A stretch of DNA of 64,000 bases, taken from the NCBI GenBank assembly GCA_934155005.1, contig CAKPGR010000002.1:21415-85414 (forward strand). The letters are read 5' to 3'. Under the pieces are notes generated by a model. That model did no database searches, had not been told where the DNA came from, and saw only the letters and a program-made list of their open reading frames with translations. The translations under genes and the position numbers were made by a program. This stretch comes from an uncultured Bacilli bacterium (lineage in GTDB: Bacteria; Bacillota_I; Bacilli_A; RF39; UBA660). Of this stretch, positions 2,008-61,026 are shown piece after piece (positions within the stretch are counted from its first letter, which is position 1; every line of letters begins with the position of its first letter).

Positions 2008-2991
2008 CTAGTTTTCACCTTCTTTTAACATATTAGTTATAAAAATACCATAACCTTTTTTAGGATCCTCTACAACAACGTGTGTGACTGCACCAATAAT
2101 TAAATCATTTTGTAAAATTGGTGATCCACTCATTCCTTGAACTATCCCACCGGTTTTTTCTAATAATTCTTTATCAGTAACTTCAAATAAAATATTTTTA
2201 TTATTAGCATCTTTTTTCATAATTTTGATGATGTTAATATCATATTCTTTTATTTCATCTCCATCAATTACTGTAAGTATTTTGGCTGGTCCTGTTTTTA
2301 TTTCATCTGGATTTGCTACTTTTTTTAGTTCTTTATTTGGTAAACTATTTGTATACTTTCCAAAAATACCACTAGATGTATTTTCTTTTATTGTACCTTC
2401 TTCGTCTTCTAAATTAATATTCGCATTTTTACTACCTGGATTTCCATTTTCACTTCTATCTATGGTTGTAACATTTGTTGATACAATCTTCCCATCTTTA
2501 ACCTCTAAAAGTAAACCAGAATTTGATTCTATGACTTCATGACCTAATGCACCATATATTAATGTTTTTGGATCTATATAACTAAGTGTTCCTATTCCTG
2601 TCACATTATCTTTTACATATAAACCTGTTTTTGAAACACCATCTTCTTTAATTAATTTTAATTTTGTTTCAAATTCTTTATCATTTCTTAAAGAAGTAAT
2701 TGAAGCTTCATTTTCAGATTTACTTATTTGATTTACAAGTTCATCAATATTTGTAACATCTACATTATTTACTTTCTTTATAATATCACCTGTTTTAAGT
2801 CCTGCTTCTATTGCAGGATTTTGGTTATTTATTTCATATGTTCCAACTATTAAAATACCTTTTGTATTAATACTGATACCAATATTTTCACCACCAGGTA
2901 TAATATATGAAGAATAAGCAAATATATTTATAGGAATTAAAGTTATTAAAAGAAGTAAGATTTTAAAGGATTTTTTAATTTTTAAAAACAT
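2008..2991 (-). CDS. spoIVB: SpoIVB-like sporulation signalling serine peptidase (S55) with PDZ domain
   Basis: PDZ-like AGLKTGDIIKKVN, catalytic-type GALGHEV and GMSGSPIL, N-terminal signal anchor. Start moved to ATG 2991 (AAAGGAG SD 8 nt upstream); the track start at 3033 looks like an extension. Confidence 0.8.
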   Translation of the reverse strand: MFLKIKKSFKILLLLITLIPINIFAYSSYIIPGGENIGISINTKGILIVGTYEINNQNPAIEAGLKTGDIIKKVNNVDVTNIDELVNQISKSENEASITSLRNDKEFETKLKLIKEDGVSKTGLYVKDNVTGIGTLSYIDPKTLIYGALGHEVIESNSGLLLEVKDGKIVSTNVTTIDRSENGNPGSKNANINLEDEEGTIKENTSSGIFGKYTNSLPNKELKKVANPDEIKTGPAKILTVIDGDEIKEYDINIIKIMKKDANNKNILFEVTDKELLEKTGGIVQGMSGSPILQNDLIIGAVTHVVVEDPKKGYGIFITNMLKEGEN

Positions 2992-3066
2992 TACATCGTC
3001 TCCTTTAAAACAGGCTACACTATTATTATTCAAATAAAAAAATAAAAAATACTTAAAAAAGTACTT

Positions 3067-5048: not shown

Positions 5049-5591
5049 CTATACAGTCATTAATTCTTTTTCTTTTTCTTTTGCTTTTTCATCTACTATT
5101 TTATTATATTTATTTATTAATTCTTGAACTTCATTTTGAACATCTTTTACTTCATCTTCTGTGATTTCAAGCTTTTTAGCGTCACTATTAGCTTCTTGTC
5201 TAATATTTCTTAAAGCAATTTTTGCTTCTTCAGCAATACTTTTTGCTTGTTTAACATATTCTTTTCTTGTTTCTTCTGTTAAAGCTGGAATATTTAATAT
5301 GATAACTTCACCATTATTATTTGGCGTTAATCCAATATTAGCTTCATAAATCGCTTTTTCTATTAAACTAATTGATGATTTATCAAATGGTTTTATTTGA
5401 AGCATTCTAGCTTCTGGAATAGAAATTGTAGCTAATTGAACAAGTGGTGTTGGAACACCATAATATGAAACATTAACTTTATCTAAAATAGCTGGATTAG
5501 CTCTTCCTGCTCTAATATTTGTAAGTCTTTTTTCTAAATTAGTTATTGTGTTTTGCATTTTTTCTTCTGTTGTAATTAAAATATCATCCAT
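5049..5591 (-). CDS. frr: Ribosome recycling factor
   Basis: LTNIRAGRANPAILDKVNVSYYGVPTPLVQLATISIPEARML. The second ATG (5591) is preferred because GGAGAG abuts the first ATG (5597). Confidence 0.93.
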   Translation of the reverse strand: MDDILITTEEKMQNTITNLEKRLTNIRAGRANPAILDKVNVSYYGVPTPLVQLATISIPEARMLQIKPFDKSSISLIEKAIYEANIGLTPNNNGEVIILNIPALTEETRKEYVKQAKSIAEEAKIALRNIRQEANSDAKKLEITEDEVKDVQNEVQELINKYNKIVDEKAKEKEKELMTV

Positions 5592-5655
5592 CTTCATCTC
5601 TCCTTATTAATATTATAATATATCAATATTAATTATTCAAGAATAAAATTATATA

Positions 5656-6486
5656 TCATTTAATTCTTTTATACATATAAACTGTTATATATGGATTTTG
5701 CACTGAAAAAGACGTTCCATTACAATTTGTACATGCTGTTGTTGATAAAGTTGTTCCAGTAAAAGTACTTGTAACTTTTCCGCTTGGTGTATAATAGTGT
5801 TGATGGTTACCTGGATTATCAGTATATACATTATCCTTAGCAGAATAACCACCTCCAAACCAAGGACCCCAATGTTGTGAACTTAAGTCGCTAACATACA
5901 TTCCTAAGCCTGATTCAAGGCGATAATTATAGCCATCATATTCACCACCGTATATTCTATGTGTATGACCTCCACTTCCTTCTGTTAAAGCTCTATTTCC
6001 ACTAAAACTAGAACTAATATTTCCTTTTGGTGTATATGTATGACTGTGACTTGGAAGATTTGAAGTTGTAAGTGTTGTTGTACTACTTCCTCCTGTCTTA
6101 CTTACTGTGTTAAAATTAGTATTACTTGTGTCTACTCCAACTAATGTCTTTCCTGTTCCATATGCTTCCCATGTCCCACCAAATTTTTTAGCTATATCAT
6201 TAGCTGTTGTTATATTCGTTGAAAGATATATACTTCCAACAGGGTACATTTCATTTAACATATCGCTTTTTAATGAATTAATTTCTTTTTTTAATTCATC
6301 ATATTTATCAGCTATACTATATAGTTCATCTAGTGAATTTTGAAGTGTTGCATCACTTCCTAAATTAGATCCTGTTGGAGCATTTACTGATATTCCATTT
6401 GCATAAAAATTACTTCCTGCATATACTCCAACACTTCCAAATATTAGTCCACCTATTATTATTCCTAGTATTATCTTTTTATTCAT
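5656..6486 (-). CDS. Family member 1: Sec-signal N-module (A) plus tail-fibre-like C-module (T) with three HxH motifs
   Basis: MNKKIILGIIIGGLIFGSVGVYA signal, SNLGSDATLQNSLDELYS motif, YPVGSIY...GGTWEAYGTGKTLVG...LPSHSHTY, GHTHRIY, NHQHYY, ending QNPYITVYMYKRIK. Preceded by the poly-G leader cassette. Confidence 0.75.
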   Translation of the reverse strand: MNKKIILGIIIGGLIFGSVGVYAGSNFYANGISVNAPTGSNLGSDATLQNSLDELYSIADKYDELKKEINSLKSDMLNEMYPVGSIYLSTNITTANDIAKKFGGTWEAYGTGKTLVGVDTSNTNFNTVSKTGGSSTTTLTTSNLPSHSHTYTPKGNISSSFSGNRALTEGSGGHTHRIYGGEYDGYNYRLESGLGMYVSDLSSQHWGPWFGGGYSAKDNVYTDNPGNHQHYYTPSGKVTSTFTGTTLSTTACTNCNGTSFSVQNPYITVYMYKRIK

Positions 6487-6619
6487 TTTTATCTACTCCT
6501 TTACACAAAAAAAAGAGGGTTTTATACCCCCCCCCGACTTTGAAATTTTTTTATCTCTCAGTCAATATTATTATTTTGCTTTACATACCCATTTTAACAA
6601 ATATCTTTTATTTTTTCAA
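6487..6619 (-). promoter_or_regulatory. Poly-G leader cassette, copy 1 (promoter plus ~95-nt 5' leader)
   Basis: -35 TTGAAA at 6614-6619, 17-nt spacer, extended -10 TGTTAAAAT (-10 at 6591-6596), invariant core, C9 (+ strand) at 6527-6535, GAGGG/loop/C-run hairpin plus U8, AAGGAG SD, ATG 6486. Confidence 0.7.
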
Positions 6620-6671
6620 TATGCCTAATAATATTACTCTACTTATATTATTAAATAAAATTTTATAACTT

Positions 6672-9011
6672 CTAATCTTGCCACTTAAAGTTTCTTATTT
6701 CCTCTAAATCTTGTCCATATTCTCTAATATATTCTTTATGCTCAACTAATTTATCTTTACATAATTGATATAAACTTGAAGATTTATCTTCTAAACAATC
6801 TAAATATTTTAAAGCATCCATTACTAAGTGAAATCTATCTAATTCATTTTGAACACGCATATCAAATGGTGTTGTAATTGTTCCTTCTTCTTTATATCCA
6901 TGTACATGTAAATCTTTATTTGTTCTTTTATAAGTTAATTGATGTATCAAGCTAGCATAACCATGGAACGCAAATATTATTGGTTTATCTTTTGTAAAAA
7001 TAGCATCATAATCAGAATCAGTAAGTCCATGTGGATGTTTTATATTAGATTCTAGTCGCATTAAATCAACTACATTTACAACTCTAATTTTTAGTTCAGG
7101 AAAATATGTTCTTAACATTTTAGTTGCAGCCAATGTTTCAAGAGTTGGCGTATCACCACAACAAGCCATAACAATATCTGGTTCTACACCTTCATCATTA
7201 CTTGCCCATGACCAAATACCAATTCCCTCTGTACAATGTTTAATTGCTTCATCCATAGTAAGCCATTGTGGTCTTGGATGTTTTGAAGCTACTATAACAT
7301 TTATATAATTTTTAGATTTAATACAGTGATTAAAACAAGATATCAAACAATTAGCATCTGGTGGTAAATAAATACGTGTTATATCAGCTTTCTTTGTAAC
7401 TAAATGATTTAAGAATCCTGGATCTTGATGAGTATAACCATTATGATCTTGTTGCCAAATATGAGATGTTAAAACATAGTTCAAAGAAGCTATTGGTCTT
7501 CTCCAAGAAAGTTCTTTTGTAACTTTTAACCACTTAGCATGTTGACTAGCCATTGAATCAACAATTCTAACAAAAGCTTCATAACTATGTAAAAATCCAT
7601 GCCTTCCAGTAAGAAGATATCCTTCTAATGCCCCTTCACAAACGTGTTCTGATAAAATAGAATCAATTACCCTTCCATCAGGAGATAAAAATTCATCATT
7701 ATTATCAGTTTGTAAAACCCATTTTCTATTAGTATCTTCAAAAATATGATTCAATCTATTGGATAGTGCTTCATCTGGTCCAAATATTCTAAAATTATCT
7801 GGATTTTCCTTAATTATATCTCTTACAAAAGCTCCAAGTTCTATCATATCTTGAGCTTCAGTATCACCTTTCACTTCAACTTTAACACCATAATTTTTAA
7901 AATCTGGAATTCTAAGTTCTTTTAAAAGCATTCCACCATTTGCATGCATATTAGAACCCATTCTTCTATTTTTGCTTGGAACAAATTCTTTATACTCGTC
8001 TTTTAATTTACCTGTCTCATCAAATAATTCTTCTGGATGATAACTCAACATCCAATCTTCTAATGCTTTTAAAGACTCTTCTGTAACCGTAATTGGAACT
8101 TGATGAGCTCTAAAACTTCCCTCAATTTTCTTACCATCTTGTTCTTTGGGACCTGTCCAACCTTTTGGTGTTCTAAGAACAACCATTGGCCATAATTGTC
8201 TTTGATAATTAGGTTCTTTTGCTTTTTCTTTCATTTCTTTTAATTTTAAAACAATTTGATCTAAGACTGTTGCCATAACTTCATGCATAGTAACTGGATC
8301 ATTACCTTCCACATAATAAGGTAGCCAACCATTTCCTTTTAATAAACAGTCTAATTCAGCCTTAGAAATCCTTGATAATATTGTTGGATTAGATATTTTG
8401 AATCCATTTAAATGAAGAATTGGTAAAATTGTACCATCTGTTTTAGGATTTAAAAATTTATTAACATGCCAAGAAGTAGCAAGCGGACCTGTTTCAGCTT
8501 CACCATCACCTACAACAGTCGCTACAATTAAATCAGGGTTATCTAAGGCGGCACCTAAAGCATGCGAAAGACTATAGCCAAGCTCTCCACCCTCATTAAT
8601 TGATCCTGGTGTTTCAGGTGCGACATGACTACTAATACCACCTGGGAAACTAAATTGTTTAAATAATTTTTTTAATCCCTCTTCATCTTCTGTTATATTT
8701 GGATATACTTCGCTATAGGTTCCTTCCAAATATGTATTTGCAACAATAGCATTACCACCATGTCCTGGTCCCGAAATATAAATCATATCTAAATCATATT
8801 TTTTGATTATTCTATTTAAATGTGTATATATAAAATTTTGACCTGGTACTGTCCCCCAGTGTCCAACTACATTAGGTTTTATATCCTTTAAACTAAGTGG
8901 CCTTTTTAAAAGAGGGTTATCTAATAAATATAATTGTCCCACTGATAAATAGTTACATGCTCTAAAATAACCATCTAAACTCTTTACTTCTTTTTCTGTT
9001 AAAGTACTCAC
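6672..9011 (-). CDS. xfp: Xylulose-5-phosphate/fructose-6-phosphate phosphoketolase
   Basis: About 780 aa with [28 protein letters not shown] and a TPP-binding [12 protein letters not shown] 9011 (AGGGGA SD 7 nt upstream) is preferred over the track's TTG 9038. Confidence 0.93.
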
Positions 9012-9200
9012 TATCCCATCCCCTATTCTTAAAAACAATTATACACTATTTTTTTTAATAATGAAATAAAAAAGAACAAATAAAATTATTATCTATTTGT
9101 CTACACTCTGAATAACTATACTATTTTTGATATACAAAAACTTTTATTTTTAAATTAATAATAATCATACTTTATTATTTTGTTCTTTTCATGCTTATTT

Positions 9201-9231
9201 AAAAAAATATTGAAACTAAGTCAATATTTTT
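9201..9231 (-). terminator. AT-rich hairpin terminator after family member 2, overlapping its stop codon
   Basis: Coding strand reads TAAAAAATATTGA-CTTAGTT-TCAATATTTTTTT, a 10-11 bp stem. The paralogous site at 31846-31871 carries a compensatory G/C swap. Confidence 0.5.
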
Positions 9232-10226
9232 TACTTTATTATTGATTTTGAGACTGTTATTACTGGACGAACACCGATACCAGTAAGGCTAACAGTACCG
9301 CTACCCAAACGACCGTCCTTACCCACACTCCACGCACTAGAAGAGTAGCTTATATTCGCATTACTTGTCCAATATCCCCATGTGTCTTGATCAGCATTAT
9401 TTAAACATCCATAGTCTTTACAGTCACTTCTTGTTCTATCATATAGCCAGCCATAATTACTTCTTTTACTTGTATCACTTTGATTACTACTTCCAAAATA
9501 AAACCATGGTTGCCCTATTTTACTTGCATCCCAATTTACATTATTTGATATTTTAGCCACTTCATTTGCTGTGATTAAACGAGCTGCATTTTTCCAGTCT
9601 TTTGTATCATTTTTTAACTGTGTAGCTACTTCTTTCATTTCACTATTACTTTCACTTGAATTCCATGCTACACGAGCTGTTGTATTATGGTCTAATATTA
9701 AATTAACGGATGAAGCCCCTTCTTCATCATTAAATGTATACCATTTCATACATCCACTCTTTGTTCCTGTTGAGCTTACTGATTCACTTTTACTACCTTT
9801 TTCTCCTGTTGTTGGATTATAGTATATAGCTGTTCCATTTTCATATTTCTTTTTTACACTTGATTTTATTGCTTTTCCATTTGTTACTATATAGTTATCA
9901 AACGTTAAATCATATCTTGTTACATTACCTTTACTTATTACTACAACTCCATTACTTGGAGTACTTCCTTTTACTGATATTCCTAAGCTTTTTAATTCTT
10001 CTACTGAATAAGCTCTATCTTTAAACTTACTTGCCGTTGTATCAACTTCATTTATCATTACTTGTTTTTCTATGGCATCTATATAACCTAAAGCTGATGA
10101 CTCTGCTGCTCCTTTTTTAGCTTTTTCTATTACTCCTAATATTGTTGGAGTTGCAATTAATACAATTATTGCTAGTATTACTATTACAGCTAGTAGTTCT
10201 ATTAAAGTAAAACCTTTTTTATTCAT
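9231..10226 (-). CDS. Family member 2: prepilin-type N-module (B) plus DUF1566/Lcl-like Cys-containing C-module (D)
   Basis: MNKKG|FTLIELLAVIVILAII is a class III signal with Glu at +5. C-terminal part has YYNPTTGEK, GCMKWYTF, RLITANEVAKIS, SDCKDYGCLNN, GYWTSNA and GVRPVITVSKSIIK. Preceded by the cassette. Confidence 0.75.
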   Translation of the reverse strand: MNKKGFTLIELLAVIVILAIIVLIATPTILGVIEKAKKGAAESSALGYIDAIEKQVMINEVDTTASKFKDRAYSVEELKSLGISVKGSTPSNGVVVISKGNVTRYDLTFDNYIVTNGKAIKSSVKKKYENGTAIYYNPTTGEKGSKSESVSSTGTKSGCMKWYTFNDEEGASSVNLILDHNTTARVAWNSSESNSEMKEVATQLKNDTKDWKNAARLITANEVAKISNNVNWDASKIGQPWFYFGSSNQSDTSKRSNYGWLYDRTRSDCKDYGCLNNADQDTWGYWTSNANISYSSSAWSVGKDGRLGSGTVSLTGIGVRPVITVSKSIIK

Positions 10227-10359
10227 TTTATCATTCCTTCCTATACAAAAAAAGAGGGTTTTGTACCCCCCCCCCGACTTTGAAATTTTTTTATCTCTCA
10301 GTCAATACTATTATTTTGTTTTACATACTCATTTTAACAAATTAACTATTTTTTTTCAA
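10227..10359 (-). promoter_or_regulatory. Poly-G leader cassette, copy 2
   Basis: -35 TTGAAA at 10354-10359, 17-nt spacer, -10 TAAAAT at 10331-10336, core with one substitution (CAATACTATT), C10 at 10266-10275, GGAAGGA SD, ATG 10226. Confidence 0.7.
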
Positions 10360-32865: not shown

Positions 32866-33001
32866 TCTATCATTCCTTTCAAAACATTAAAAAAAGAGGG
32901 TTTTTTACCCCCCCCCCGACTTTGAAATTTTTTTATCTCTCAGTCAATATTATTATTTTGTTTTACATACTTATTTTAACAAATTAATTTTATTTTGGCA
33001 A
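32866..33001 (-). promoter_or_regulatory. Poly-G leader cassette, copy 4
   Basis: -35 TTGCCA at 32996-33001, 17-nt spacer, -10 TAAAAT at 32973-32978, invariant core, C10 at 32908-32917, ATG 32865. Confidence 0.7.
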
Positions 33002-48716: not shown

Positions 48717-48848
48717 GTTATAACTCCTTTACACAAAAAAAGAAGGGTTTTTTACCCCCCCCCCGACTTTGAAATTTTTTTATCTCTCAGTCAATATTAT
48801 TATTTTGTTTTACATACTTATTTTAACAAATTAAATCTATTTTTTCAA
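48717..48848 (-). promoter_or_regulatory. Poly-G leader cassette, copy 5 (archetype)
   Basis: Coding strand: TTGAAA (48843-48848), 17 nt, TGTTAAAAT (-10 at 48820-48825), AAGTATGTAAAACAAAATAATAATATTGACTGAGAGATAAAAAAATTTCAAAGTC, G10 (48755-48764), TAAAAAACCCTTC, T7, GTGTAAAGGAG, ATG 48716. Confidence 0.72.
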
Positions 48849-60218: not shown

Positions 60219-60926
60219 TTACTTTATTCTTTTATACATATAAACTGTTATATATGGCTGTAAATTTGTAAATGATGTTCCTTGGCAATTTACACAACTT
60301 GTCGTTGTTCCACTATATGTATGGGTATGATTACCTAATGTACCCCATGTTGTATATGGATTAGATGTATCATAATTATGCCATACAAGTTGCCATTCAG
60401 AATTTGTAGGAGTTGCTGCTGGCCACGCTACATACTTACCAAAGTTAGAACTATTATCAGTTGTTCCGCTATATGTATGATTATGACTTGGAAGGTTTGA
60501 TGTTGTAAGTGTTGTTGTGCTACTTCCTCCTGTCTTACTTACCATATTGAAGTTTGTATCATTTATATCTACTCCAACTAATGTCTTTCCTGTTCCATAT
60601 GCTTCCCATGTTCCACCAAATTTGGTCGCTACATCAGATGCACTTTTTATATCTGTTGATATATAAATACTTCCCACTGGATACATTTTATCTAACATTG
60701 AATTTATTTTTGTACTTAATTCGTCATACTTATCAGCTATACTATATAATTCATCTAGTGAGTTTTGAAGAGTTGCATCACTTCCTAAATTAGAACCTGC
60801 AGGAGAATCTACTGATACATCACCTGCATAAAATTTTGTTCCTGCATATACACTTACGCTTCCAAATATTAATCCTATTATTATTCCAAATATATTCTTC
60901 TTTATTAAATTTAAAACTTTCTTCAT
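60219..60926 (-). CDS. Family member 6: Sec-signal N-module (A) plus tail-fibre-like C-module (T) with two HxH motifs
   Basis: Start set at ATG 60926 (AAAGGA SD); the track's TTG 60950 lies in the leader. SNLGSDATLQNSLDELYSIADKYDEL, YPVGSIY, GGTWEAYGTGKTLVG, LPSHNHTY, GNHTHTY, ending QPYITVYMYKRIK. Confidence 0.75.
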   Translation of the reverse strand: MKKVLNLIKKNIFGIIIGLIFGSVSVYAGTKFYAGDVSVDSPAGSNLGSDATLQNSLDELYSIADKYDELSTKINSMLDKMYPVGSIYISTDIKSASDVATKFGGTWEAYGTGKTLVGVDINDTNFNMVSKTGGSSTTTLTTSNLPSHNHTYSGTTDNSSNFGKYVAWPAATPTNSEWQLVWHNYDTSNPYTTWGTLGNHTHTYSGTTTSCVNCQGTSFTNLQPYITVYMYKRIK

Positions 60927-61026
60927 ACCATTAATCCTTTCTACATACAAAAAAGAGAGGTTTTGTACCCCCCCCCCCGACTTTGAAATTTTTTTATCTC
61001 TCAGTCAATATTATTATTTAATTTTA
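60927..61026 (-). promoter_or_regulatory. Poly-G leader cassette, copy 6 (5'-shortened)
   Basis: Invariant core present, C11 at 60968-60978, stem variant CCTCTC. TAAAAT at 61021-61026 overlaps the yneF stop. There are 13 nt fewer between TAAAAT and TTGACT, and no -35 match. Confidence 0.6.

Follow-up and report, generated by a model that had tools for sequence, protein, structure and literature searches.

The window analysed here is a stretch of 64,000 nucleotides from an uncultured Bacilli bacterium of the order RF39 (assembly GCA_934155005.1, contig CAKPGR010000002.1, positions 21,415 to 85,414 of the forward strand), and it carries at 5656..6486 (-) an open reading frame (ORF), with its ATG start at 6486, for a 276-amino-acid protein in which the receptor-binding end of a phage tail fibre appears to be placed behind a secretion signal. 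All strings quoted in a preliminary description of this sequence are found in the ORF, namely KYDELKKEINSLKSD, YPVGSIYLS, FGGTWEAYGTGKTLVGVD, KTGGSSTTTLTTSNLPSHSHTY and the C-terminal end QNPYITVYMYKRIK. The predicted signal (residues 1–23) is followed by one tail-fibre repeat, a short heptad coiled coil and a head of the T4 gp10/gp12 type, within which the chain is predicted to extend to a variable, aromatic-rich tip and to return as a conserved last strand (Table 1). Housekeeping genes surround it; within approximately 8 kb are found those for CDP-diglyceride synthase, a SpoIVB peptidase, xseA, nusB, frr, phosphoketolase, holA and a two-component system. As judged from the sequence comparisons described below, this uncultured gut bacterium with a small genome has put a secretion signal on a receptor-binding fibre end and has multiplied the product to dozens of scattered genes that differ in their binding tips.

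The head of the protein was assigned in the preliminary description to the tail-collar and baseplate family of phage proteins, and profile and structure searches agree. Pfam family PF21939, Gp10_C ('Baseplate structural protein Gp10, C-terminal domain'), matches residues 76–275 with an E-value of 2e-21 and a score of 77.8 bits against a cut-off of 27, covering profile positions 1–139 of 139, and PHROG tail, tail-fibre and tail-collar families match with E-values down to 1e-21; NCBIfam returned no match for the protein. The crystal structure of the T4 gp10 C-terminal domain (2FKK) is recovered with an E-value of 4.5e-5 by the single sequence and of 1e-14 by a profile of 100 homologs. The same profile matches the long tail fibre of Anabaena phage A-1(L) (8KEC) with an E-value of 1e-9 and with the run of HxH motifs aligned; 8KEC is a solved trimeric fibre (PMC10966104). 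The AlphaFold2 monomer model is not compact, and consists of an extended helix followed by a head (mean predicted local distance difference test score, pLDDT, of 69; predicted template modelling score, pTM, of 0.43). The pLDDT exceeds 90 for residues 81–130 and falls below 50 for residues 186–216, and the last strand (residues 270–274) is again confident. Since both conserved ends are modelled confidently and the middle is not, the chain seems to exit the core, build the tip and come back. A Foldseek search with this model retrieves T4 gp10 and many viral baseplate, tail-fibre and tail-collar models. Matches to gp10 in 5IV5 and to 2FKK have E-values of 2e-4 to 2e-3 with a template modelling score of only about 0.3, a low value attributable to the model being a monomer with a disordered tip.

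The gp10 C-terminal head fold is common to gp11 and gp12. The T4 gp10 domain, which is trimeric in T4, shares with the protein the helix, the core (YP[VI]GSIY...GGTW...TGGS...NLP) and the closing PYITVY strand. In contrast to gp10, the protein described here stands behind a Sec signal, is not accompanied by a baseplate gene or any other phage gene and contains, between core and last strand, a large HxH-bearing variable insert that lies outside the gp10 alignment. Among Firmicutes siphophages, the tail proteins of human-gut Faecalimonas, Blautia and Dorea phages (Lachnospiraceae) align over residues 53–274 including all three HxH motifs. The tail protein XTK84608.1 of Faecalimonas phage NatCom_33527 shares 37% identity over 226 residues, and its three HxH motifs occupy matching positions; tips are varied in phages too, in tandem arrays. 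The phage proteins differ in being 600–700 amino acids long, in having virion-docking N-terminal parts and no signal peptide, and in being encoded between Dit/Tal and the lysis genes. In phages, the domain terminates the product of the last tail gene ahead of the lysis genes or lysin, or is found after Dit-Tal, which is the position of a receptor-binding protein. More than 500 viral relatives are present in IMG/VR, none of them more than about 37% identical across the full head, and two other heads of the family had at most 35% identity, or no match, in GenBank phages. With a best phage identity of about 37%, there is no sign of a recent exchange with a known phage. The phage origin of the head is nevertheless clear from these alignments.

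The segment that precedes the head also appears to be of fibre type. Residues 24–56, termed the A module in the preliminary description and N-module here, had been likened there to a motif at tail-fibre N-termini, a likeness that holds by way of relatives. In relatives of like architecture the N-module reads ..V(S/Y)YxDNSxLGxxNVQxAIDELY (or ..VSYDNSxLGxxNVQxAIDELY), and a family profile searched against 1.84 billion representative proteins (E-values up to 1e-3) recovered 4,609 proteins that carry the motif as a 3–53-fold repeat and lack signal peptides. All ten repeat proteins scanned match phrog_2137 'tail fiber protein' with E-values of 1e-6 to 1e-17, and the N-module copies of the relatives match the same profile positions with E-values of 0.004–0.05. 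The protein's own copy alone gave no significant tail match in PHROG, the N-module alone matched just one PHROG family (E-value of about 7e-4), for which no function is annotated, and the N-module profile gave only chance matches among PDB sequences. The homology to the tail-fibre repeat is hence transitive, as the copy in question has no tail match by itself and is linked through the family profile. The motif VSYDNTxSGLxAxxVQxAIDEL is very widespread, with up to 53 copies per protein (for instance in P0121, a protein of 5,298 amino acids with 53 repeats), and Pfam did not recognize this repeat in the ten proteins scanned. The short coiled coil noticed earlier is likewise borne out: residues 48–80 form a single long helix in the AlphaFold model, show a hydrophobic period of 3.5 residues across 21 paralogs and align with the N-terminal helix of the T4 gp10 C-domain (2FKK). 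Such a heptad stalk is compatible with an oligomer. As repeat, stalk and head are all fibre parts, the entire mature protein appears to be fibre-derived.

What the phage proteins lack is the signal-like N-terminus. It consists of MNKK, a 17-residue hydrophobic segment (IILGIIIGGLIFGSVGV) and V-Y-A|GS, which by heuristic reading fits the -3,-1 rule for signal peptidase I, in line with the Sec signal proposed earlier. A hydrophobic N-terminus is present in 113 of the 120 best homologs from public metagenomes; many of the homologs carry unrelated signal sequences with textbook A-x-A sites immediately before the coiled coil, and in two a type IV prepilin motif replaces the signal. The signal is therefore predicted to be cleaved, with the mature protein starting at Gly24. 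The protein itself has no PF07963 match and no prepilin motif in a Pfam scan.

Three HxH motifs had been reported, and they are present at residues 147, 174 and 228, where they hold six of the seven histidines of the protein; three or more such motifs occur in only 0.02% of 20,000 shuffles of the protein (P = 2e-4). Among 100 homologs, H147 and H149 are never substituted, and conservation is at least 90% at H174 and H230. Paralogs have one to four HxH motifs each, and nearly every histidine of the 21 paralogs with a Gp10_C head lies within one. In gp37, gp12, pyocin fibres and spikes, HxH motifs from three chains form an octahedral Fe or Zn site (PMC6116203), and by analogy the HxH triplets of this protein may bind metal on the fibre axis.

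Diversity is concentrated in the tip, which is aromatic-rich in its loop (10 of 51 residues, compared with 19 of 202 elsewhere in the protein). Nucleotide identity among the 21 Gp10_C paralogs is 0.85 for the N-module, 0.69 for the core, 0.42 for the tip (codons 151–255) and 0.63 for the last strand. N-module similarity does not predict core similarity among these genes (Spearman 0.04), and they are hence best described as mosaics. The tip has no close relative elsewhere in its own genome. As had been stated for the second copy in the window (given there as 60219–60926), the paralog at 60219–60950 (PF21939, 92.6 bits, E-value of 5e-26) is 54% identical overall and cannot be aligned at residues ~160–235. 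A CxxC motif (C[TVQI]NC[NQS]G) directly precedes the closing strand in six of the 21 paralogs, with mostly STGSG in the rest; the motif may provide one tip class with an additional metal or disulfide site.

Allelic variation follows the same pattern, although some of the comparisons rest on short metagenome contigs. The nearest differing allele of the gene, on a single 1,077-bp contig, has seven nonsynonymous codon changes in codons 193–204 and two in the other 93 tip codons. For the paralog at 60219–60950, an allele is available from a contig of 38.7 kb that has the secE-nusG flank in common (99.5% identical): the 52 codons of tip residues 149–200 contain 20 nonsynonymous and 8 synonymous changes and one indel, compared with 8 nonsynonymous and 7 synonymous changes in the 148 codons of the N-terminal part (1–148) and 0 nonsynonymous and 1 synonymous in the 35 codons of the C-terminal part (201–235). 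The scaffold residues W, P, EWQ, YDTS and PYT are unchanged. Change focused on the tip with the scaffold kept is the pattern expected of a specificity-determining surface, which is what the preliminary description had proposed. A protein with residues 1–147 as in the protein studied here, followed by the tip of another paralog (P0003), was set aside as its 996-bp metagenome contig is possibly chimeric. At the same xfp-frr locus, five other assemblies encode the identical protein, and on this basis, together with the multi-copy sets found elsewhere (below), the gene appears to be maintained by selection.

The gene is not a lone domesticated fibre gene, and instead represents one of at least 36 cassettes. 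Searching the assembly (968,583 bp in 32 contigs, ~25% GC, 91% complete) with the N-module yielded 36 ORFs, all single-gene cassettes, of which 21 have a Gp10_C head, nine a DUF6273-like head and six other small beta-rich heads; no two have the same tip. The 'YAG...' segment after the signal is strongly conserved in all 36, and all 21 Gp10_C reading frames are intact and have a common leader. A 98.6-kb contig of the same species from a Hadza sample (L181) is 99.9% identical to contigs C24 and C27 of the assembly and joins them. It shows six consecutive cassettes (three with Gp10_C heads, one pilin, one 527-amino-acid membrane protein and one with another head), among them a 284-amino-acid member missing from the assembly. 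As this contig holds further cassettes without counterpart in the assembly, 36 is a minimum.

Heads of the family are also found on pilins. The gene at 9231–10226 (-) encodes a type IV pilin (N_methyl, ComGC-like N-terminus) with a DUF6273-like C-terminal head, the same kind of head that stands behind signal and N-module in nine of the paralogs, and fusions of PF07963 with PF21939 occur in relatives (P0094, P0110). Other species of the genus gave 0–4 weak matches each. Across the order, 43 of 201 genomes contain PF21939, for the most part in single copy; the multi-copy cases inspected were rejected as members of the same family, being head-only tandem prophage arrays without signal peptides. 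In such prophages of other genomes of the order (L097 (G072:C36:1-6000), L098, L099, L100, L101), three to eight Gp10_C ORFs of ~130–180 amino acids, which start with MKLNIDFIYPVGSIY, lie in tandem just 5' of the holin and lysin genes. G or C runs of 7 or more are absent from all five of these arrays. Multi-copy genes consisting of signal, motif and head are found in other metagenome-assembled genomes (MAGs) of uncultured gut 'Bacilli' or 'Tenericutes' from Hadza people, rabbit, deer and ruminants, with at least 14 copies in one and at least nine in another. A hydrophobic N-terminus is present at 64 of 79 of these loci, and upstream of 27 of the 79, within 200 nt, lies a G or C run of at least 7. 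The design is thus common to several lineages and yet patchy.

The leader of the gene contains a G9 tract that forms part of a terminator-like hairpin (Table 1); the leader hairpin scan gave three terminator-like matches compared with 0.2 expected. Genome-wide, at 25% GC, there are 46 G or C runs of 8–11 bases, and about 45 of them lie in one leader context (TTTCAAAGTC-Gn-TAnAAACCCTC-Tn) before cassette genes. Many of the contigs, several at least, end inside a leader or cassette. Nine other species of the genus have tsf ahead of frr, in some cases with a single further ORF in between, and here phosphoketolase and the fibre cassette precede frr instead (window 5049–9038). The tsf gene of this genome is on contig C18, the end of which falls in another leader of the family. 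As the tsf-frr order is replaced and the tsf contig ends in a family leader, the cassettes sit at rearrangement points and mark synteny breaks.

Table 1. Coordinates of the fibre gene, its parts and leader, and of related elements in the window
Feature	Position	Strand	Remarks and basis
Promoter-like site (TTGAAA, 17-nt spacer, TG-TAAAAT)	6591..6619	-	consensus match alone
Leader hairpin, terminator-like (G9 run, TATAAAA loop, CCCTC, T tract)	6510..6535	-	sequence scan; G9 tract at 6527-6535
Ribosome-binding site AAAGGAG	6496..6502	-	9 nt 5' of ATG; read from sequence
Sec-type signal peptide (predicted), codons 1-23 (MNKK, hydrophobic core, VYA|G)	6418..6486	-	sequence reading and homologs
N-module ('A module'), codons 24-56 (GSNFYANGISVNAPTGSNLGSDATLQNSLDELY)	6319..6417	-	diverged single copy of the phage tail-fibre repeat; alignment and profile
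Heptad coiled-coil stalk, codons 57-80 (helix from ~residue 48)	6247..6318	-	AlphaFold, periodicity, 2FKK alignment
Conserved Gp10_C core, codons 81-150 (YPVGSIY...GGTWE...TGGS...LPSHSH)	6037..6246	-	Pfam, 2FKK, profile, pLDDT
Invariant first HxH	6040-6048	-	homolog alignment
Variable tip, codons 151-255	5722..6036	-	paralog and allele comparison, pLDDT
Second HxH	5959-5967	-	within tip
Hypervariable stretch, codons 193-204	5875-5910	-	allele comparison
Third HxH	5797-5805	-	within tip
CxxC, codons 252-255	5722-5733	-	within tip
Conserved return strand closing the head, codons 256-276 and stop (NPYITVYMYKRIK)	5656..5721	-	alignments; pLDDT 96 for last block
Paralog with same N-module and core, other tip	60219..60950	-	upstream of secE-nusG
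Poly-G runs	6527-6535, 10266-10275, 26766-26775, 32908-32917, 48755-48764, 60968-60978		

We favour, with a probability of roughly 60%, the reading of the protein as a Sec-exported binding protein, probably trimeric and metal-stapled, that carries a specificity tip. Three chains would come together at the coiled coil, and each HxH motif (147, 174 and 228) would contribute six histidines to an axial metal ion as in phage fibres. This stapling would result in a rigid fibre of ~10 nm, on which a surface ligand, most likely a glycan, would be bound by the loops that lie between the first HxH and the last. An extracellular binding role is suggested by the related heads fused to type IV pilins, both in relatives and at 9231–10226. 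The poly-G leader would set which of the cassettes are expressed, and the product of the gene is probably a switchable attachment protein, part of a repertoire of exported binding proteins that is probably switched gene by gene and may attach the cell to host material or other microbes. The conserved N-module could dock the trimer on a common surface structure, as the N-termini of fibres do on virions. A further idea, which we consider rather unlikely, is that a phage-style host-range module has moved onto the cell, with switchable exported tips on stalks and pilins latching onto particular partner bacteria, so that each tip would set the 'host range' of an epibiotic or cross-feeding way of life.

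Several points weigh against the proposed attachment protein, and retention on the cell seems to be the weakest of its steps. No LPXTG motif, lipobox or wall-binding domain was found in the protein, which may be released if the signal is cleaved. Also, the genome encodes a penicillin-binding protein (PBP), MraY and FtsW, for which reason a wall is likely, and a short membrane-tethered fibre would then fall short of the surface. The structure prediction is for a monomer only, with the mean pLDDT as given above and a low-confidence tip, and T4 gp12, the classic HxH-zinc head, was not among the significant Foldseek matches. Finally, some of the recombinants with apparently swapped tips were found on metagenome contigs of 1 kb and may be artefacts of chimeric assembly. 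The cleavable look of the signal and the lack of an anchor after it would suit a soluble decoy or receptor mask, whereby secreted tips bind the cell's own wall glycopolymers or free phage-receptor material and block adsorption of phages with related receptor-binding proteins, and the many tips track phage diversity. Diversification centred on the tip would agree with this, and so would the tandem arrays of the same head in prophages of the same order, which make it plausible that the heads recognize the surfaces of these bacteria. However, like heads on type IV pilins argue for fibre display over masking, the per-gene poly-G leader suggests expression of subsets and is a better fit to adhesin repertoires, and we know of no precedent for such secreted fibre-tip decoys; we therefore regard masking as improbable. 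Much the same low probability is given to a type II membrane-anchored stalk, in which the signal stays uncleaved and the head lies just outside the membrane within the wall, with a role in the envelope or at cell-cell junctions. The length of the hydrophobic stretch (17–19 residues) would allow this, and the conservation of 'YAG...' in all paralogs could mean a membrane-proximal function, but in divergent relatives, whose signal sequences are unrelated, Ala is retained at -1 and position -3 is small or aliphatic, and the many relatives in which an A-x-A site leads directly into the coiled coil are typical of cleaved signals.

That the proteins are spare fibres for a prophage or tailocin elsewhere in the genome, or debris of a decaying prophage, is very improbable, even if the domain is a genuine phage tail domain and the assembly is incomplete and fragmented. 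The absence of phage genes near the ORF, remarked on in the preliminary description, extends to the genome: a six-frame search of its 0.97 Mb for HK97-type capsid, TerL (PF03354 only), portal, tape-measure and sheath proteins was empty, with control genomes scoring, and the tail-module proteins of three phages matched the head domain alone. The absence of a phage is likely and not proven, given the limited set of families and the 91%-complete assembly. A Sec signal is moreover at odds with virion assembly in the cytoplasm, and neither the 21 intact frames with their common leader nor the identical protein in five other assemblies speaks for debris. Only one phage-like item turned up in the genome, a large serine recombinase carried on an insert of ~3 kb that interrupts a PBP gene.

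By analogy, the closest functional precedent for the proposed attachment protein is the fusion of a shufflon PilV pilin with a tail-collar domain, which its authors read as a phage domain repurposed for partner recognition (PMC9881135). As in this and other modular type IV pilins, a domain of phage receptor-binding type is carried on a cell-made extracellular structure with a variable binding end. In contrast to the PilV-collar pilins, the protein has a Sec signal and a stalk of fibre repeat and coiled coil in place of a prepilin motif, and its family varies through many paralogs and allelic change of the tip and not through an invertible shufflon. Mycoplasma Vlp/Vsa and Neisseria Opa are phase-variable multigene families of surface proteins. 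They resemble the present family in having many dispersed paralogs, a conserved export end, a variable exposed end and a homopolymeric tract before each gene, and also in a reduced genome and a life associated with a host organism (for a general review of phase-variable surface-protein families, see PMC11475388). They have no sequence relation to it, their variable parts being lipoprotein or porin repeats or loops, whereas here a folded phage head varies and switching is putative. Non-phage bacterial proteins with the tail-collar fold are known as well (MdpB-type proteins; C24 of Bizionia argentinensis, 6OV6); the Foldseek match to 6OV6 is weak (E-value of 0.06) and the architecture differs. 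The MdpB-type proteins (COG4675) and C24 have, to our knowledge, undergone no comparable gene-family expansion or tip variation. A literature search on RF39 with tail fibre or adhesin returned nothing relevant.

The group comprises uncultured gut bacteria with very small genomes, and the question touched by this family is how they are retained in their niche. About 3% of a genome of less than 1 Mb is devoted to exported proteins, at least 36 in number, that are composed of parts of phage fibres. With this share of the DNA in cassettes and with tips that diversify within the species, attachment specificity would seem to be a central and fast-evolving trait. The family represents a clean case of a cell taking phage receptor-binding modules wholesale (repeat, stalk and head), beyond an addition to a pilin, and the heads could be expressed recombinantly as reagents for asking what, or whom, these bacteria bind. 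Public annotation of such proteins as 'hypothetical' or 'phage baseplate protein' would mislead prophage callers.

Two minor observations concern other genes of this genome. The PBP gene split by the recombinase-bearing insert is FtsI/SpoVD-like and lies outside the window (contig C9:30282-35169); the insert contains the 529-amino-acid recombinase (C9:32670-34259) along with two small ORFs, mraY and ftsW come next, and the arrangement resembles the intervening elements in sporulation genes. Within the window, the peptidase at 2008–3033 (-) is a SpoIVB-type S55 peptidase with a PDZ domain (E-value of 2.5e-74), which in a genome of less than 1 Mb would be odd if the organism is non-sporulating.

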